A DNA stretch of 64,000 nucleotides from an uncultured bacterium (GTDB taxonomy: Bacteria > Patescibacteriota > Minisyncoccia > Phycocordibacterales > CAIJYI01), in contig CAIJYI010000037.1 in the NCBI GenBank assembly GCA_903824855.1, positions 18,684 to 82,683 on the forward strand, in the 5' to 3' direction. Each line of letters opens with the position of its first letter. The first letter of the stretch is position 1. A program made the translations under genes and the position numbers. The notes below the pieces were generated by a model, which worked only from the letters and a program-made list of their open reading frames with translations, had not been told where the DNA came from and searched no databases. Positions 30,902-49,470 of this stretch are shown here, piece by piece.

Positions 30902-31837
30902 ATGAAACTTCCTCAATTAAAAACTGAATTTTTGGAACATCTTGAGATTGAGCGAGGCCGTTCACTCAAAACAATTGAGAATTATGACCATTATTTATCG
31001 CGCTTTTTAGAATTCGCAAAACTCACGGAAGCGGATGAAATAACTGATGAAATCGTGCGAAAATACCGCATTTGGCTCAACAGGCAAGATGCGGGAAAAA
31101 AACGCCGAGGGGCAGATGAAGGAATATCCGGAACTCTTAAAAAGAAAACGCAGAATTATTACCTTATCGCCTTGCGCGCCTTCCTCAAATACCTTGTCCG
31201 ACGGGAAATAAAATCACTTCAGCCCGACCGAATCGATCTTGCTAAGACGAGCGAGCGTTCACTTGACCTTATTTCGAGTGACGAACTCGCAAGACTTCTT
31301 TCTGCGCCAAAAGGAGATAAACTTCAGAATCTCCGCGACCGAGCTATTCTGGAATTACTTTTCTCAACAGGACTGCGCGTTTCCGAGCTCTGTTCCCTTT
31401 CCCGATATATAGATTTAAAAAAAGATGAACTCTCTGTAAGGGGGAAAGGTGAGAAAATCCGCGTTGTTTTTCTTTCCGAAGACGCTAAAGACGCGATAAA
31501 AAAATATTTGGAAAAACGCGACGATGTCGACGATGCACTTTTTGTTAAACATACGAACGGTGGTGCCAAAGACTCAAAATCGCTTCGCTTAACTCCAAGA
31601 AGTGTCGAGCGAATGGCGGAACACTATGCACTCGCCGCCGGTATTTCAAAAAAAGTTACCCCGCACGTCATTCGCCACAGTTTCGCCACAGACCTCCTCG
31701 AAAACGGAGCCGACCTTCGGAGTGTCCAGGTAATGCTCGGTCATTCCAATATCGCGACTACTCAAATCTATACCCACGTCACAGATAAAGGTTTGAGAGA
31801 AATCCACAAAAATTTCCACGGAAAAAAACGAACATAA
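30902..31837 (+). CDS. Tyrosine recombinase, XerC/XerD family
   Basis: RDRAILELLFSTGLRVSEL, GKGEK.R, TPHVIRHSFATDLL, MLGHSNIATTQIYTHV (R-H-R-H-Y catalytic set). Confidence 0.93.
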   Translation: MKLPQLKTEFLEHLEIERGRSLKTIENYDHYLSRFLEFAKLTEADEITDEIVRKYRIWLNRQDAGKKRRGADEGISGTLKKKTQNYYLIALRAFLKYLVRREIKSLQPDRIDLAKTSERSLDLISSDELARLLSAPKGDKLQNLRDRAILELLFSTGLRVSELCSLSRYIDLKKDELSVRGKGEKIRVVFLSEDAKDAIKKYLEKRDDVDDALFVKHTNGGAKDSKSLRLTPRSVERMAEHYALAAGISKKVTPHVIRHSFATDLLENGADLRSVQVMLGHSNIATTQIYTHVTDKGLREIHKNFHGKKRT

Positions 31838-31910
31838 AATATCTTTTTACACACGAACATCTTTATGATAGGGTTTGAGAAGATGTTTTTATAGTACAAA
31901 AGGAGGATAT

Positions 31911-32711
31911 ATGAGTGAGACGAATGAAGTCGTGTTGAAAGAACCGACTCTTCGGATAAACGAGAAAGGTATATATAATTCTTACCTCCGAGGTCATCTC
32001 TTAGGGAAAGGTATTTCGTATGAACTAATCAAAAAATGTCTTTCGGAAGGAAAAGAAGTTACAGGCTCATTGAAGTATAAAAAAGAAGGAACGAGATATT
32101 TTGTTCTTTCTGTTGAAAAAGAAGCAGATTTGCCGGGAGCTTTTATTCTCCCCTCTACGCATGGACCCCTGGGCAATAAAGTTTCCAATTGGAATTCGTC
32201 CTGCACTTTTAAATTTCGCCACGGTCGGCTGGTTCCGGTAATAAAAAGAAAGGATATTCCGGATTGGCTCATAAAATATGCGACAACCTTTTGGGTTATT
32301 GTAGAAAAAAATGAACTTCAAGATGAAACACTATTGAACCGCGATGGTCCGACGGAAAAAGACATCGAGGGAAGCTGGTTCGTTGTAACTGCCCATTTTG
32401 GACCACCAAACATTCCAAAACCACGTGTTCCGAAAGATTGCGGTAATAAAACGGATTTGAAAAATTATTTGAATGATTTGGATAATTGGAATCGTCAGCA
32501 ATTTAGTACCGTATATATAGACTTGGAAACCGACGGTCAAACCGGCCCGTGTGAAGCATCAAAAGAAAATCATGATGAAATAGCAGAACTCAAAAAAATC
32601 GTCTCATTTCAGCAAAAACAAATGGAAGAAATGCGCGAAGAGATACATCGTCTAAAAAAGATTTTCACGAAAAGAATGCGTTCAAAAGAACGGGGTGAAA
32701 ACAGAAAATAG
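31911..32711 (+). CDS. Hypothetical protein with C-terminal coiled coil
   Basis: ATG 31911 after AGGAGG RBS; VVTAHFGP motif. Confidence 0.65.
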   Translation: MSETNEVVLKEPTLRINEKGIYNSYLRGHLLGKGISYELIKKCLSEGKEVTGSLKYKKEGTRYFVLSVEKEADLPGAFILPSTHGPLGNKVSNWNSSCTFKFRHGRLVPVIKRKDIPDWLIKYATTFWVIVEKNELQDETLLNRDGPTEKDIEGSWFVVTAHFGPPNIPKPRVPKDCGNKTDLKNYLNDLDNWNRQQFSTVYIDLETDGQTGPCEASKENHDEIAELKKIVSFQQKQMEEMREEIHRLKKIFTKRMRSKERGENRK

Positions 32712-46664: not shown

Positions 46665-46734
46665 TAGATATATTATAACCGAAAATATCGATTTTGGTTA
46701 CTTGCAAAAAATTCCGCGTGTTGCGGAATTTTTT

Positions 46735-46906
46735 TGTGCCCGAGAGAGGAATCTTTCTCCTTACAGGAGCGGTACATGTTTTATACCTCACTTCGCCGAC
46801 CTCGGCTCGTTACGGTATATTCAACATCTTCAAATCCTCACGAAAGAGAAGCAGTTCTCTTTCTTCTCGGGCACACAAAAAATCGGCTCAATGCCGATTT
46901 TTTCTG
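46735..46906 (-). other. tRNA-3'-associated structured element, copy 1 (after tRNA-Leu)
   Basis: Split antisense tRNA copy (46829-46875), 25-nt hairpin insert (46840-46864), 76-nt core (46753-46828) and 16-bp direct repeat of the tRNA 3' end (46735-46750 = 46905-46920); terminator at 46705-46736. Confidence 0.8.
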
Positions 46907-46988
46907 TGCCCGAGAGAGGACTTGAACCTCCATGTATTGCTACATACGCACCTGAAGCGTACGCGTCTACCAATTTCGCCACCCGGGC
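46907..46988 (-). tRNA. tRNA-Leu (anticodon CAG)
   Basis: GCCCGGG/CTCGGGC acceptor, D-loop AAATTGGTAGA, TACGC-TTCAGGT-GCGTA anticodon arm, long variable arm, GGAGG-TTCAAGT-CCTCT; CCA not encoded. Confidence 0.95.
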
Positions 46989-47065
46989 ATACGTGTATAT
47001 AAGGGATTAACAAATCATCCTTATATACACACCCTATCAAATCTCTCTATAAAATACCAATGGTA

Positions 47066-48355
47066 TTACTTCTTAAACCATTTACCGTATTTATCGCCAA
47101 ATTTTTTCAAATTGTCGGAGATGTCTTCTTCTTTATTTTTTTTAATTTCCGGTTTCGAATCCTCTTCTTTCTCTTCAATCAGTTCTTCACTATTCAATGC
47201 TGAAATTTCTTCTGATAGTTCTTCCTCAAATTCTTTTTTCAACTTAACCGGTTTTGGTTTCTTTCCTTCAATAATTTCGAGCATTTCCTCAATCTCATTT
47301 TTCGGCAAAAGTCCCTGTAAAACACCTCGGAATATTTGCTCTTGAAATTTCTTTTGCAGGATATTTGTCATTCCTCCCGGTGGCATACCTTTTCTTATCC
47401 AGTTGATATAAGGATATGCGGTTTCGCTAATAGGGAGAGTAACCAATACAATATCATCCGCCTGATTCGTATCATCAGATTTATTTCGTTTTGCCTTTGC
47501 AATCTGTCTCTTCTTTTTCTCTTGTGTCTCAGGGTTCGTATTCATCGTCAATTGGACACCTATTTCTTCCGTTTCTTCTGATTCTTCAACCCTTACCCCA
47601 CGAAGTCTTTTTGGAATACGAATATAAAAATCTATTTTTCCCTCAACATCTTCGTAAATATCCGCATCTTCAATCTTTATCGGAAGATTACAGTCAATAA
47701 TCATCTTCTGAAAAAATGTTTTAACAATTTTTTCAGCAACTATTCCGGGCTGTATTTCATTTTTTTCTCGCCGTTCTGATACCGCCGTATAAGCCGTGGT
47801 TAGATGCTCACGCCCAATCCTATCAAACTCTGAGGTCGATTTTGGTTTCTGGTGAATTTCTGTTTTTAAAATTTGATCATCCGCCAAAGAAAGAATATTT
47901 CTTCTTGCGTCATCGACAATAAATCGTTTTCTCACTTCTCTCGGAACGGTTCCGTCCATTTCATATAAAATCCCCCATTCCGGGTCAGTCAAGATTTCGC
48001 CTTTTGTTGCAGAAGATTTTGTTCCGTCAGGAAGAGTAATAATGGCTTTTTCCTCTTTTTCGTTCCATGAAACGGAACGCACGGTTGTATCCCCGTCAAA
48101 ACCAATAACGGGTTCATCTTTATCGATGGCCTGCAGTTTTTCATGCAGTTTACCCATTATCTTATTCTTCATATTTTGCAAAGTGAAGATTTCCGCCGCC
48201 GTTTCTTTTGTCCATATCCCTTTTTTCACAAAGTCTTTTCCCATTTGAGTAATCTCACCCTTTATCGTGTTTTTCTCTCCTTCATCTTGAGATTTTTTAA
48301 ACTCGGTTATTTTCTCATTCGTTGCGAGCAACGATTCTTCAAAATTTTCTTTCAT
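47066..48355 (-). CDS. Hypothetical protein, possible PD-(D/E)xK-like nuclease fold
   Basis: GIVAEKIV...EDVEGKIDFYI...IGVQLT pattern with acidic/lysine-rich flanks; lies between the two tRNAs. Confidence 0.6.
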   Translation of the reverse strand: MKENFEESLLATNEKITEFKKSQDEGEKNTIKGEITQMGKDFVKKGIWTKETAAEIFTLQNMKNKIMGKLHEKLQAIDKDEPVIGFDGDTTVRSVSWNEKEEKAIITLPDGTKSSATKGEILTDPEWGILYEMDGTVPREVRKRFIVDDARRNILSLADDQILKTEIHQKPKSTSEFDRIGREHLTTAYTAVSERREKNEIQPGIVAEKIVKTFFQKMIIDCNLPIKIEDADIYEDVEGKIDFYIRIPKRLRGVRVEESEETEEIGVQLTMNTNPETQEKKKRQIAKAKRNKSDDTNQADDIVLVTLPISETAYPYINWIRKGMPPGGMTNILQKKFQEQIFRGVLQGLLPKNEIEEMLEIIEGKKPKPVKLKKEFEEELSEEISALNSEELIEEKEEDSKPEIKKNKEEDISDNLKKFGDKYGKWFKK

Positions 48356-48487
48356 ATGCATACAGAATACCAAATTGAAGAAGAACAAGCAAAAAACTTT
48401 TAAATCTCACAGAAATGATTTCGTCCTCTTACGGTGGTATTTTTTTGTTTTTTATGATATATATAATAGTAATTGAATAAAGAACGG

Positions 48488-48574
48488 GGAGAGGTGGCTG
48501 AGTGGTCGAAAGCGCCTCACTGCTAACGAGGTATCCTGTAAAAAGGATCCAGGGTTCGAATCCCTGCCTCTCCG
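48488..48574 (+). tRNA. tRNA-Ser (anticodon GCT)
   Basis: GGAGAGG/CCTCTCC acceptor, TGGTCGAAAGC D-arm, CTGCTAA anticodon loop, long variable arm, CAGGG-TTCGAAT-CCCTG; followed by CCT, so CCA not encoded. Confidence 0.95.
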
Positions 48575-48757
48575 CCTGTATTAAGAAATGCCCTTTTTAG
48601 GGTATTTTTTAATGCAGGCGGAGAGGAGAAAGACAACTGCTTGTCTTTCGTCGGGGATTCGAAGATGTTGAATATATCGCAACGAGTCGAGATCGACGAA
48701 GTGAGATATAAAACCCGTACCGTCCATGTAATGGAAGAAATTCCCTGCCTCTCCGTC
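48575..48757 (+). other. tRNA-3'-associated structured element, copy 2 (after tRNA-Ser)
   Basis: Split antisense tRNA copy (48617-48663), 25-nt hairpin insert (48627-48651), 76-nt core (48664-48739) and 14-bp direct repeat of the tRNA 3' end (48742-48755 = 48561-48574); terminator at 48763-48786. Confidence 0.8.
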
Positions 48758-48801
48758 AAAAAAAACACCGGCAACCGCCGGTGTTTGTATATATCTCGTC
48801 G

Positions 48802-49470
48802 TTAAACGAGTGAATAGATAACTCCTCCGAGTAAGATAATAAAGAGTATAGTATCAAAAAGCGTGTGATAAGTAATACTCCAAGCTAATGCTCTTGCGTG
48901 CGCTAAATGAAGTTCTTCTTCTTTGCAAAACGGAAGAGTTTCCAAATATGCTTTTCGGTATTTATATCCGAGGAAAAGCCCGAGAATAATGAGCGATACG
49001 CCGGCTGCGATGGGAATTCCGAGTATAAGATGAATTAAACCGAAGAACGTTGACCACGCAAATATCTCGCCCCAGGTGGTGTGTCCGTGTCGAAACATTC
49101 CTTCTTCTATTGCGACAAAGAACGGCGCAACAAAAACAAGAGAGACAAGCAGAAAGATAGGAGCATACCTAAGATAATCTGCCTGTGTTTGCACGAGATC
49201 CGCAATCGGTGTGAGAATAATATTCCCGCCTTCCGGTGAGAAAAAATTCATCCAACCAAGTCTGGAAAGTGGCACAAATAATGATAAAAGAACAAAAGAT
49301 GAAGCGACGAGAGTTAAAACTCCCAACACTTCCGCGACCATTTTTGGCCGTACTCTTTTCCAGATAAAAGAAATAAACGAAAGATTTGTGAACGCATCAT
49401 AAAAGATACGTACTAAGAAATAAACAGCGTACGCCAAAGCGGCATATTTGAGTAAAACGAACGGATCCAT
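48802..49470 (-). CDS. CPBP/CAAX-family intramembrane metalloprotease-like protein
   Basis: EEGMFR, FGLIH and YHTLFD motifs within multiple TM segments. Confidence 0.75.
   Translation of the reverse strand: MDPFVLLKYAALAYAVYFLVRIFYDAFTNLSFISFIWKRVRPKMVAEVLGVLTLVASSFVLLSLFVPLSRLGWMNFFSPEGGNIILTPIADLVQTQADYLRYAPIFLLVSLVFVAPFFVAIEEGMFRHGHTTWGEIFAWSTFFGLIHLILGIPIAAGVSLIILGLFLGYKYRKAYLETLPFCKEEELHLAHARALAWSITYHTLFDTILFIILLGGVIYSLV

Follow-up and report, generated by a model that had tools for sequence, protein, structure and literature searches.

A tRNA-linked repeat family of Patescibacteria with antisense arms matched to the local tRNA gene

In a 64,000-nucleotide stretch of the genome of an uncultured Patescibacteriota bacterium (the window), a short structured unit lies behind each of two tRNA genes, and the arms of each unit match the tRNA gene beside it. 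The observation of paired tRNA-linked units with host-matched arms is confirmed, and the units belong to a family that is young, abundant and present on most tRNA types. Judged by its parts, this family has the tRNA-linked repeat layout of the E. coli TLR type, without sequence relation to it. The best reading, to which we give a probability of roughly 45%, is that of a non-autonomous mobile unit that would move as folded single-stranded DNA and land in the T-loop of tRNA and tmRNA genes.

The two loci and their family

The Leu and Ser units each measure 137 nt from arm to arm and consist of the following parts (a caret marks the junction between two tRNA positions).

46906..46988, minus strand: tRNA-Leu(CAG), host of copy 1 (ARAGORN, Rfam)
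46874..46906, minus strand: copy 1, first hairpin, with a terminator-like apex; the palindrome extends into the tRNA end (sequence)
46865..46873, minus strand: copy 1, antisense arm a' (tRNA 73 to 65; sequence comparison with the tRNA)
46840..46864, minus strand: copy 1, inserted hairpin of 25 nt at tRNA 64^65, made up of A, a 9-bp stem with a CTGC loop, and GT
46829..46839, minus strand: copy 1, antisense arm b' (tRNA 64 to 54), with terminal GAA and one G.T mismatch
46756..46828, minus strand: copy 1, class A core of 73 nt, made up of a long hairpin, a GTACCG linker and a 5-bp hairpin with a GTA loop
46737..46755, minus strand: copy 1, sense copy (tRNA 57-73), split at 59^60 by AT at 46751-46752
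46705..46736, minus strand: copy 1, second terminator-like hairpin, unlike the first (sequence)
48488..48576, plus strand: tRNA-Ser(GCT), host of copy 2 (ARAGORN, Rfam)
48575..48618, plus strand: copy 2, first hairpin (apex; sequence)
48619..48626, plus strand: copy 2, antisense arm a' (tRNA 73 to 66)
48627..48651, plus strand: copy 2, inserted hairpin of 25 nt at tRNA 65^66
48652..48663, plus strand: copy 2, antisense arm b' (tRNA 65 to 54), with one G.T mismatch
48664..48736, plus strand: copy 2, class A core of 73 nt
48737..48755, plus strand: copy 2, sense copy (tRNA 57-73), split at 59^60 by AT at 48740-48741
48756..48786, plus strand: copy 2, second terminator-like hairpin (sequence)

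The order of parts is at both loci the one claimed in an earlier sequence-only reading of this window, which had also correctly placed the split of the antisense copy near the acceptor/T-stem junction (64^65 for Leu, 65^66 for Ser) and had recognised a shared 25-nt hairpin; the two inserted hairpins are indeed identical at 23 of 25 positions, and both differences belong to one compensated pair. The 76-nt segments proposed there as the core do align without gaps at 60/76 identity, but their last 3 nt are tRNA-derived (positions 57-59; AAG in Leu, GAA in Ser) and a 2-nt AT insert then precedes position 60, so that the constant core is 73 nt long and the sense copy, present as described, is split too, which that reading had missed. 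The Leu and Ser loci are joined by a BLAST alignment of 143 nt at 79.7% identity (E 3.5e-29 against the genome), and the folds of the two units, computed with DNA parameters on the tRNA-sense strand, stand at z -5.2 and -3.7 relative to shuffled sequences, with 0 of 200 shuffles folding as well.

A model of the family gives 19 matches in this genome, 16 directly behind tRNA genes and 3 displaced, and finds matches in 47 of 60 relatives, with up to 33 per genome. Further copies are linked to tRNA genes, a point that the earlier reading had proposed to test: 26 of the 30 top model matches in relatives lie at most 400 nt behind a tRNA or tmRNA called by ARAGORN, and matches are restricted to tRNA or tmRNA ends or bear tRNA arms, instead of being dispersed over many intergenic sites. 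The units are 140-230 bp long and carry no gene. Compared with one another, four class A cores from this genome, which follow two Leu tRNAs, one Ser and one Pro tRNA, are 78-97% alike, against 64-79% when compared with the cores of relatives; by their sequences, cores cluster by genome and not by tRNA.

Site occupancy is patchy, and some sites (Val-GAC and Leu-CAG) remain filled across the genus, as a host function would predict. An empty orthologous tRNA locus, which the earlier reading had suggested seeking, is represented by one clean aligned pair only: a 176-bp unit lies behind tRNA-Phe in the genome G003, and G005 has homologous flanks without it; the two terminator copies of G003 have a common loop, which is inverted in G005. 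A metagenome scan using the neighbouring alanine racemase returned 69 loci, none near enough for filled/empty pairs, and the contigs of four DNA runs from one study, three of them possibly the source, contained no joints or excised forms.

At gathering score Rfam returned nothing but tRNAs, and on 7 loci searched up to E 5 nothing but weak unrelated matches, leaving the family without a match there. None of the outcomes that the earlier reading had named as refuting came about. Plasmid and phage collections gave no match, and 51 pattern matches in viral contigs included none with the stem, which provides a useful control for chance. The tRNA 3' sites are also crowded with REP-like palindromes, further hairpin repeats and small GIY-YIG genes, and the same inserted hairpin was seen off tRNA ends at four loci with Campylobacterota or similar titles.

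Templated arms and covarying stems

Compared with positions 54-73 of the local tRNA, for 34 tRNA types and tmRNA together, the left, antisense arm agrees at 1632 of 1760 positions; when set against 198 tRNA ends, 83 of 94 arms match none better than the local one. At positions where the tRNA has a wobble pair or mismatch, the arm is the Watson-Crick complement of the 3' strand in 46 of 49 cases and equals the 5' strand in 2, which shows that it was templated from the target tRNA. Of the 34 cases in which tRNA and sense copy disagree, the arm agrees with the tRNA in 31 and with the sense copy in none. The arm also runs on into genomic trailer sequence, and CCA is absent from it where not encoded. 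The earlier reading's view of a non-autonomous tRNA-linked element with arms tracking the local tRNA has held; of its suggestion that the arms are guide-like or templated, the complement-copy evidence supports the second, and no evidence was found for guide action. A pseudo-tRNA duplication was rejected by comparison of the arm with the two strands of the tRNA, and a T-loop intron was rejected, since the tRNA copy that comes first is whole and the later one decayed or split.

The inserted hairpin interrupts the arm at 64^65 in 43 and at 65^66 in 42 of 88 copies, with no target bases lost. The sense copy, present in 68 of 88, starts at positions 54-60 and is often split at 59^60 or decayed. A U-run terminator-like hairpin precedes 62 of 88 copies. 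In 52 of 68 loci the first terminator is unlike the second, which simple target duplication without later change does not predict. Terminator loops are inverted in 4 flipped pairs among 103 hairpins and within one locus in 2 of 68; loop inversion is a mark of template switching (PMC8794818). A promoter scan gave no signal over chance.

In the constant parts, pairing of the inserted stem reaches 99.7%; there are 3 G-T among 585 cells, and two-sided changes number 105. The pairing figure is inflated by the fact that about two thirds of these hairpins were found by a pattern fixing the inner five pairs. The last core hairpin has a GTA triloop and five covarying pairs, and GCGAAGC-type tips recur; for mini-hairpins of this type, the DNA form has far greater stability than the RNA form (PMC13037366). 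The paired inserted stem, the covarying GTA triloop hairpin and these tips are DNA-like signs in favour of the best reading.

These observations also bear on a rather unlikely alternative, in which the unit is a structured RNA retained by the host, like RtT/RrB: a putative trailer RNA whose antisense arm pairs with the sense copy as a mimic of the acceptor/T-helix, with the inserted hairpin in place of the D and anticodon arms. It would be made by read-through or co-transcription, excised by tRNA-processing enzymes and spread by gene conversion among tRNA loci. E. coli RrA/B/F TLRs are transcribed via first-terminator read-through, processed and bound to Hfq and CsrA (PMC8144298). A split at 64^65 or 65^66 preserves the 12-bp helix, displaced copies retain arms and covarying cores, 26 of 88 copies lack a preceding U-run terminator, and the tRNA-sense strand gives the better fold in 57 of 61 cores. 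This strand preference and the arm mismatches, which on the tRNA-sense strand favour G.T (42 vs 23, p 0.025), fit RNA equally well. However, the arm is a complement copy instead of a tRNA-like 5' strand and never follows a diverged sense copy; the acceptor parts are the most decayed (88% and 91%), and no sense copy is found in 20 of 88. G-U pairs are scarce in predicted core folds (66 of 1605), the loops are DNA-type triloops, and the patchy occupancy also counts against an RNA of this kind.

It is quite unlikely that no dedicated machinery is involved and that tRNA 3' ends are template-switching hot spots which trap generic stable hairpins, kept by conversion as a by-product. Stems can be created and maintained by template switching (PMC8794818), and the crowding of these sites with the repeats, palindromes and GIY-YIG genes mentioned above, together with the inserted hairpin off tRNA ends, would suit such an origin. 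Yet 85 of 88 junctions fall in two registers, the inserted hairpin is 25 nt long in 89 of 94 cases and its orientation is fixed, unpaired bases are conserved and covariation is strong, which implies recognition and selection.

Candidate movers and routes

Under the mobile reading, we infer a single-stranded DNA intermediate and a fold-back route with the following order of events. The T-loop, universal in tRNA and tmRNA genes, would be the landing site, and the constant parts (the 25-nt inserted hairpin and the two-hairpin core) would travel between tRNA loci within a lineage. Insertion would duplicate the tRNA end from 56/57 on and leave the gene intact; the nascent strand would fold back at the hairpin behind the tRNA and copy the tRNA 3' strand into the antisense arm, which may be made in this way at insertion or be re-matched after arrival. 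The inserted hairpin may act as a hinge and GAA/TTC (54-56) as a universal re-entry point, the candidate mover being a trans-acting or host nickase or recombinase.

Among recurring ORFs within 1.5 kb of copies there was no protein family in common, and longer copies with a mobilising gene between the arms, which the sequence-only reading had envisaged, were not found. Y1, GIY-YIG and reverse transcriptase (RT) profiles over 60 relatives, which as kin are not independent, revealed no obligate partner: Y1 and GIY-YIG counts correlate weakly with copies (rho 0.48 and 0.38, compared with 0.53 for genome size; same non-independent kin), Y1 is absent from 12 of 47 carriers and 6 of 47 have only one GIY-YIG match. 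RT, Y1 and GIY-YIG in the genome are not required for the family.

A retroelement-like unit, in which a trans-acting reverse transcriptase would extend the folded-back pre-tRNA end and jump between tRNA and element RNA, might account at a single stroke for templated arms and for several template switches. It is nevertheless highly improbable: there is no reverse transcriptase in cis, PF00078 has no match in this genome, RT is missing in 27 of 47 carriers, including the richest, and present in 3 of 13 non-carriers (hand count), and the arm enters genomic trailer without CCA where CCA is not encoded. Hammerhead and IS91-type readings were set aside, since neither the order of junctions nor the termini appear to fit them.

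REP/REPIN elements with RAYT (Y1 HUH), which are mobilised in trans, resemble the units as small non-autonomous hairpins with a GTAC-like linker 5' of the hairpin (10.1101/2024.07.17.603846). The present family differs in being bound to tRNA/tmRNA ends, with arms rewritten site by site, and its repeat does not flank the four Y1 genes of this genome, which have flanking palindromes of other kinds. Small GIY-YIG gene units of the same order use the same tRNA target genes; the direct repeat restarts at about 57 in two, and one 5' duplicate ends at C56. They bear genes, show no antisense arm or inserted hairpin in those read, and are absent beside tRNAs in this genome; tRNA-linked GIY-YIG genes (13 of 41 parsed GIY-YIG genes lie near tRNAs, 20 of 50 loci being hand-picked) are a separate kind of unit with a shared target.

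Integrative islands with tyrosine integrases enter tRNA genes in the T-loop, and CTX/Xer folded sites are grouped with integron attC. As with islands, the tRNA 3' end is directly repeated here from the T-loop and the gene is intact, whereas the units are small, at about 140-180 bp, without an integrase between the repeats and with an extra inverted target copy. It is unlikely that the hairpin of tRNA 54-73 and the antisense arm is an attC-like folded site at which a tyrosine recombinase, either the host's own Xer-like enzyme or an integrase in trans, recombines a single strand, with the extrahelical hairpin marking the site, cores as cassettes and arrays growing at the tRNA end. The geometry is alike: a folded single-strand hairpin with extrahelical, unpaired features at a fixed distance, a universal crossover or junction triplet, a variable tip and tandem units also characterise attC/cassette arrays (IntI; PMC5027507). 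The imperfect hairpin here has such features in fixed register and a single orientation (101 CTGC and 0 GCAG loops among 110 inserted hairpins), tandem arrays with different cores exist, and the genome has one tyrosine recombinase (Xer-like) gene, about 15 kb away. However, R''/R' boxes (RYYYAAC...GTTRRRY) are lacking, the conserved junction being T-loop TTC/GAA, neither integrase nor attI platform adjoins the copies, and the arms consist of target sequence. Cargo genes, where they occur, lie between the tRNA end and the hairpin, outside the cassette position. A donor with another tRNA's end would, moreover, break the target tRNA, so that re-matching would still be needed.

Relation to the E. 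coli TLRs

TLRs have been known since 1978, without function or origin. In E. coli they lie behind tRNA genes, single or in tandem, with function given as unknown (PMC8144298); members are the 178-bp repeats of tyrT/tyrV (RtT, RF00391), the lysT cluster, serX, the argV cluster, proK and rrA/B/F. The sequence-only reading had recognised no described family, which does not hold for the layout. TLRs stand directly downstream of a tRNA or rRNA gene, as 16 of the 19 matches here do behind tRNA genes. They end in an 18-19 bp copy of the 3' end of the upstream gene, which from the T-loop begins at 58/59 in E. coli and at 56-60 here, where such a copy is present in 68 of 88. Core hairpins with GNA triloops and GAGCGAAGCGA tips occur in both (PMC8144298). 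By sequence the two are unrelated under either model: the RtT model matches the E. coli tyr and lys units and none of these loci, at gathering score or up to E 5, and the family's model does not match E. coli TLRs (best E 0.19). The family itself is undescribed in the literature surveyed; Rudd 1999 and Egan and Landy 1978 may refer to the antisense piece, and the supplements of PMC8144298 may bear on TLR anatomy.

The 17 K-12 TLR units examined contain a stretch that is antisense to their host tRNA. The host is strictly the best match in 11, tied in 4 and outdone in 2; in 9 of 17 units no more than 3 of 100 shuffles do as well, and the stretch often terminates in GAA at position 54. The E. coli antisense arms are shorter, whereas in the Patescibacteria family all 20 nt are copied into the arm, which the constant 25-nt hairpin interrupts; the sense copy of this family is often split at 59^60, and it also uses many more tRNA types, plus tmRNA.

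It is possible, and proposed here tentatively, that these units form a protein-less class of mobile elements programmed by their target, with arms rewritten from the tRNA gene that is entered, and mobilised at the T-loop by an enzyme, of the host or supplied in trans, that works on folded single-stranded DNA, and that the E. coli TLRs are decayed or domesticated members. If true, the class would span Patescibacteria, Elusimicrobiota and Enterobacteria and would explain a repeat family that has remained without function since 1978. Being young, abundant and placed on most tRNA types, the Patescibacteria family displays features that are faint in E. coli, namely the templated antisense arm, junctions at tRNA coordinates on both arms and exchangeable cores, and E. 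coli K-12, whose TLRs carry antisense stretches too, offers testable predictions. If the mobile reading holds, this would be an element aimed at its site by copying the site, unlike integrases, TnpA guides and RNA-guided systems.

Structure of the element at its host genes

The two elements stand behind tRNA genes located by ARAGORN:

46906-46988, minus strand, tRNA-Leu(CAG)
48488-48576, plus strand, tRNA-Ser(GCT)

The order of parts described in the sequence-only reading, namely tRNA, hairpin, split antisense copy of the tRNA 3' end (the arm), core, sense copy and terminator-like hairpin, is confirmed at both loci, as is the 60/76 identity of its two 76-nt segments, the loci matching over 143 nt at 79.7%. 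The alignment of this shared core stands, while its extent requires correction, because its last three bases are tRNA positions 57-59, followed by a 2-nt insert, so that the sense copy is also split. The arm-to-arm length is 137 nt in both copies, and the tRNA-sense strand of both units folds better than 200/200 shuffles. In the search of Rfam for a described family, the tRNAs were the sole matches at the two loci. The observation in the window is real, lies far beyond chance and extends past what was first seen. The adjoining ORFs, 47066-48388 (minus) and 48802-49470 (minus), encode about 430 and 222 aa and belong to no Pfam family.

A total of 286 distinct tRNA or tmRNA loci were examined, comprising those of the genome under study (G000), roughly half the tRNA genes from each set of six congeners taken together, and the pattern-search loci. 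The inserted hairpin occurs in 98, of which 94 are parsable and 88 have arms matching at least 14 of 20 positions. In these 88 copies, hosted by 34 tRNA types and tmRNA, 1632 of 1760 arm bases match positions 54-73 of the local tRNA. Against 198 pooled ends, the local tRNA ranks strictly first for 72/94 arms and first or tied for 83/94, with a mean score of 18.1 versus 10.9 in the pooled-ends comparison; an exception in G000 is the arm behind Pro(GGG), which shares one more matching base with Pro(CGG). The insert measures 25 nt in 89/94 and lies at tRNA position 64|65 in 43/88 and 65|66 in 42/88, with no target base lost. A sense copy is present in 68/88, with positions 57-60 contiguous in 32, and in 21 of the 36 non-contiguous copies positions 57-59 are found again, 1-2 nt upstream of position 60 (shuffle mean 7.8, 0/2000 as high); several copies carry an 11-14-nt hairpin at this split. 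The cores form two structural classes, and in their last hairpin five pairs covary around GTA. In the inserted stem, pairing reaches 99.7%, two-sided changes number 105 and G-T occurs in 3 of 585 cells, the inner pairs of many rows being fixed by the search pattern, and the loop of this stem keeps a single orientation (101 CTGC, 0 GCAG among 110 hairpins).

Origin of the arm and movement of the constant parts

At 49 positions the 5' and 3' strands of the tRNA do not form a Watson-Crick pair; the arm is the exact complement of the 3' strand at 46 of them, carries the base of the 5' strand at 2 and has another base at 1. At positions altered in the sense copy, the arm agrees with the tRNA in 31/34 cases and with the sense copy in 0/34, which shows that there is no arm-to-copy compensation and is not proof of active repair. 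On sequence grounds, the arm was copied from the target tRNA. Inverted terminator loops occur between homologous hairpins, a pattern left by template switching according to PMC8794818. That the element is a by-product of that process is considered quite improbable.

Four G000 cores of class A, the type of both window copies, stand behind different tRNAs and are 78-97% identical mutually versus 64-79% to relatives' cores; in the relative G005, the cores behind Lys and Pro are 94% alike. Orthologous tRNAs are patchily occupied. A 176-bp unit behind tRNA-Phe in G003, with a repeat of the tRNA end and terminator at either boundary, is absent from G005, where the flanks are homologous. Tandem arrays with differing cores exist. 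The first and second terminators differ in 52/68 loci (same in 5, flipped in 2, too short in 9), which counts against a simple duplication model. The comparisons of cores and of occupancy indicate that the constant parts of the element move; no excised joint was found in four DNA runs of one study. The same terminator hairpins were seen to follow different tRNAs (Leu TAG/CAG/GAG; Val and Ala) in genus relatives, at L146, L238, L192 and L235, and on G000 contigs C17, C19 and C30. A comparison of G003 with G005 at Leu(CAG) suggests that the two terminators have changed places, one being inverted.

Distribution and other units at tRNA genes

A covariance model of the inserted hairpin and arm, built from 65 sequences, gave 19 matches in G000 at E <= 0.05, four of them in the training set. 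The expected tRNA linkage of further copies was borne out, with 16/19 directly behind tRNA genes (one weak) and the remaining three displaced, yet with arms fitting tRNA-His, tmRNA and tRNA-Asn. Matches were present in 47/60 relatives (0-33 per genome) and in 1/120 genomes sampled from the rest of the phylum; this version is therefore concentrated in one order. Scanning species genomes with an exact pattern yielded 98 loci, with the stem continuing past the pattern in 80, and 60 of these 80 are at most 400 nt downstream of a tRNA or tmRNA called by ARAGORN; record titles were mostly Patescibacteria, and nine of the 80 listed rows had Elusimicrobia titles. In viral contigs, a less strict pattern gave 51 matches, none with the stem. 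The same inserted hairpin was seen in intergenic hairpin elements away from tRNA ends (L075, L077, L097, L124), three in records titled Campylobacterota and two with 12-bp terminal inverted repeats.

Several other arrangements were observed in G000. Behind tRNA-Ser(TGA) (C4:19964-20300), a variant lacks the inserted hairpin; its antisense arm is contiguous, its 30-nt core ends in a GCGAAGC hairpin tip, and the tRNA end and trailer are repeated exactly. One copy with a His arm is found 3 kb downstream of tRNA-His (C24:21700-25000, L513), with three ORFs of 356 aa (radical-SAM-like CxxxCxxC start), 265 aa and 217 aa between; this cargo seems to have entered at the tRNA-His 3' end, pushing the element away, and similar cases are G046 Asn and G006 Ala. 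Class A cores within truncated tRNA copies (1 to about 51-54), just upstream of intact tRNA-Gly(CCC) or tRNA-Gln(CTG) (C15:12170-12425 and C23:195-481), are probably deleted units at duplicated genes. Another class A core (C43:53400-53660, L244), 250 nt upstream of tRNA-Ser(GGA), lies between 18-bp inverted repeats that are not tRNA-like, and this locus has no Rfam match. tRNA-Ile(TAT) is repeated from the anticodon loop onwards at C37:89639-89884 and C12:21750-22059, each repeat preceded by a GCGAAGC mini-hairpin, and these repeats would mark a second entry point in tRNA genes. A tRNA-Asn overlooked by ARAGORN (C38 ~570-910, minus) has its anticodon loop split by ~250 nt resembling an intron; group I introns occur in tRNA-Asn of Patescibacteria.

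Mobilization, physical nature and relation to known systems

Recurring ORFs near element copies were housekeeping neighbors only, with no partner. The four RAYT-like Y1 genes of G000 each have their own flanking palindrome pair, and its GIY-YIG genes are two small ones away from tRNAs, plus UvrC. Five of these genes, among which the GIY-YIG gene sits amid short tandem and palindromic repeats, lie at:

G000 C41:88317, C3:9795, C8:2006, C27:845, C33:159, four Y1 genes and one GIY-YIG gene

The sole tyrosine recombinase of G000 is XerC/D-like (311 aa; window ~31280-32220, C37:49954-50469, L243). Across 60 relatives, Y1 and GIY-YIG counts were no more closely correlated with element counts than genome size was. 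A retro route is highly improbable, as no RT was found in G000 and RT presence does not track the element across the 60 relatives. Small GIY-YIG genes (PF01541, assigned by a Pfam-type check for two of them) have a partial 5' tRNA copy on one side and a full tRNA gene on the other at L459, L460, L461, L462, L466, L468 and L472, where a short palindrome often interrupts the D arm of the partial copy and one partial copy ends exactly at C56; at L470 and L458, the gene is enclosed by the tRNA and a repeat of the tRNA 3' end. These tRNA-linked genes of relatives are a candidate partner, as a lead only; a few have junctions at 56|57.

DNA is favored by stems with near-perfect Watson-Crick pairing, by GNA triloops, by GCGAAGC-type tips, whose stability is much greater in DNA (PMC13037366), and by the terminator-like hairpin preceding 62/88 copies. 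The sense strand folds better in 57/61 cores, and arm mismatches favor G.T over A.C, both being equally compatible with a transcript and with a displaced sense strand; that the element is a processed RNA is judged somewhat unlikely. An attC-like site is unlikely as well, since the geometry is similar (PMC5027507) but attC boxes and the cognate integrase are lacking.

The tRNA-linked repeats (TLRs) of E. coli comprise 22 units distributed over ten loci. They have no known function, every unit closes with 18-19 bp from the 3' end of the gene upstream, and the three rRNA-linked TLRs are transcribed and processed; the available part of this source (PMC8144298) makes no mention of an antisense arm. 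Antisense stretches with 8-14 bases matching were found in 17 K-12 units that follow Tyr, Lys, Ser, Arg and Pro tRNAs, the host tRNA being strictly best in 11, tied in 4 and losing in 2, with at least 97/100 shuffles beaten in 9/17. Several of these stretches have GAA at position 54 as their end, and the sense copy resumes at 58/59; the layout is therefore common to TLRs and the tRNA-linked element. In contrast, the RtT model (RF00391) has no match at these loci, nor does the element's covariance model match the E. coli units. Raised mobilome coverage over the tyrT/rttR region has been credited to RNA/DNA hybrids, not circles, in 10.1101/2024.07.17.603846. No description of the tRNA-linked family was found in the literature searched, a scope to which the older Rudd 1999 and Egan and Landy 1978 do not belong.

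The preferred reading, with a probability of roughly 45%, is a non-autonomous element of folded single-stranded DNA, which would land in the T-loop of a tRNA gene and whose arms are copied from the target tRNA. The element works like the TLRs and is best placed beside them, and it is not a member of RF00391.
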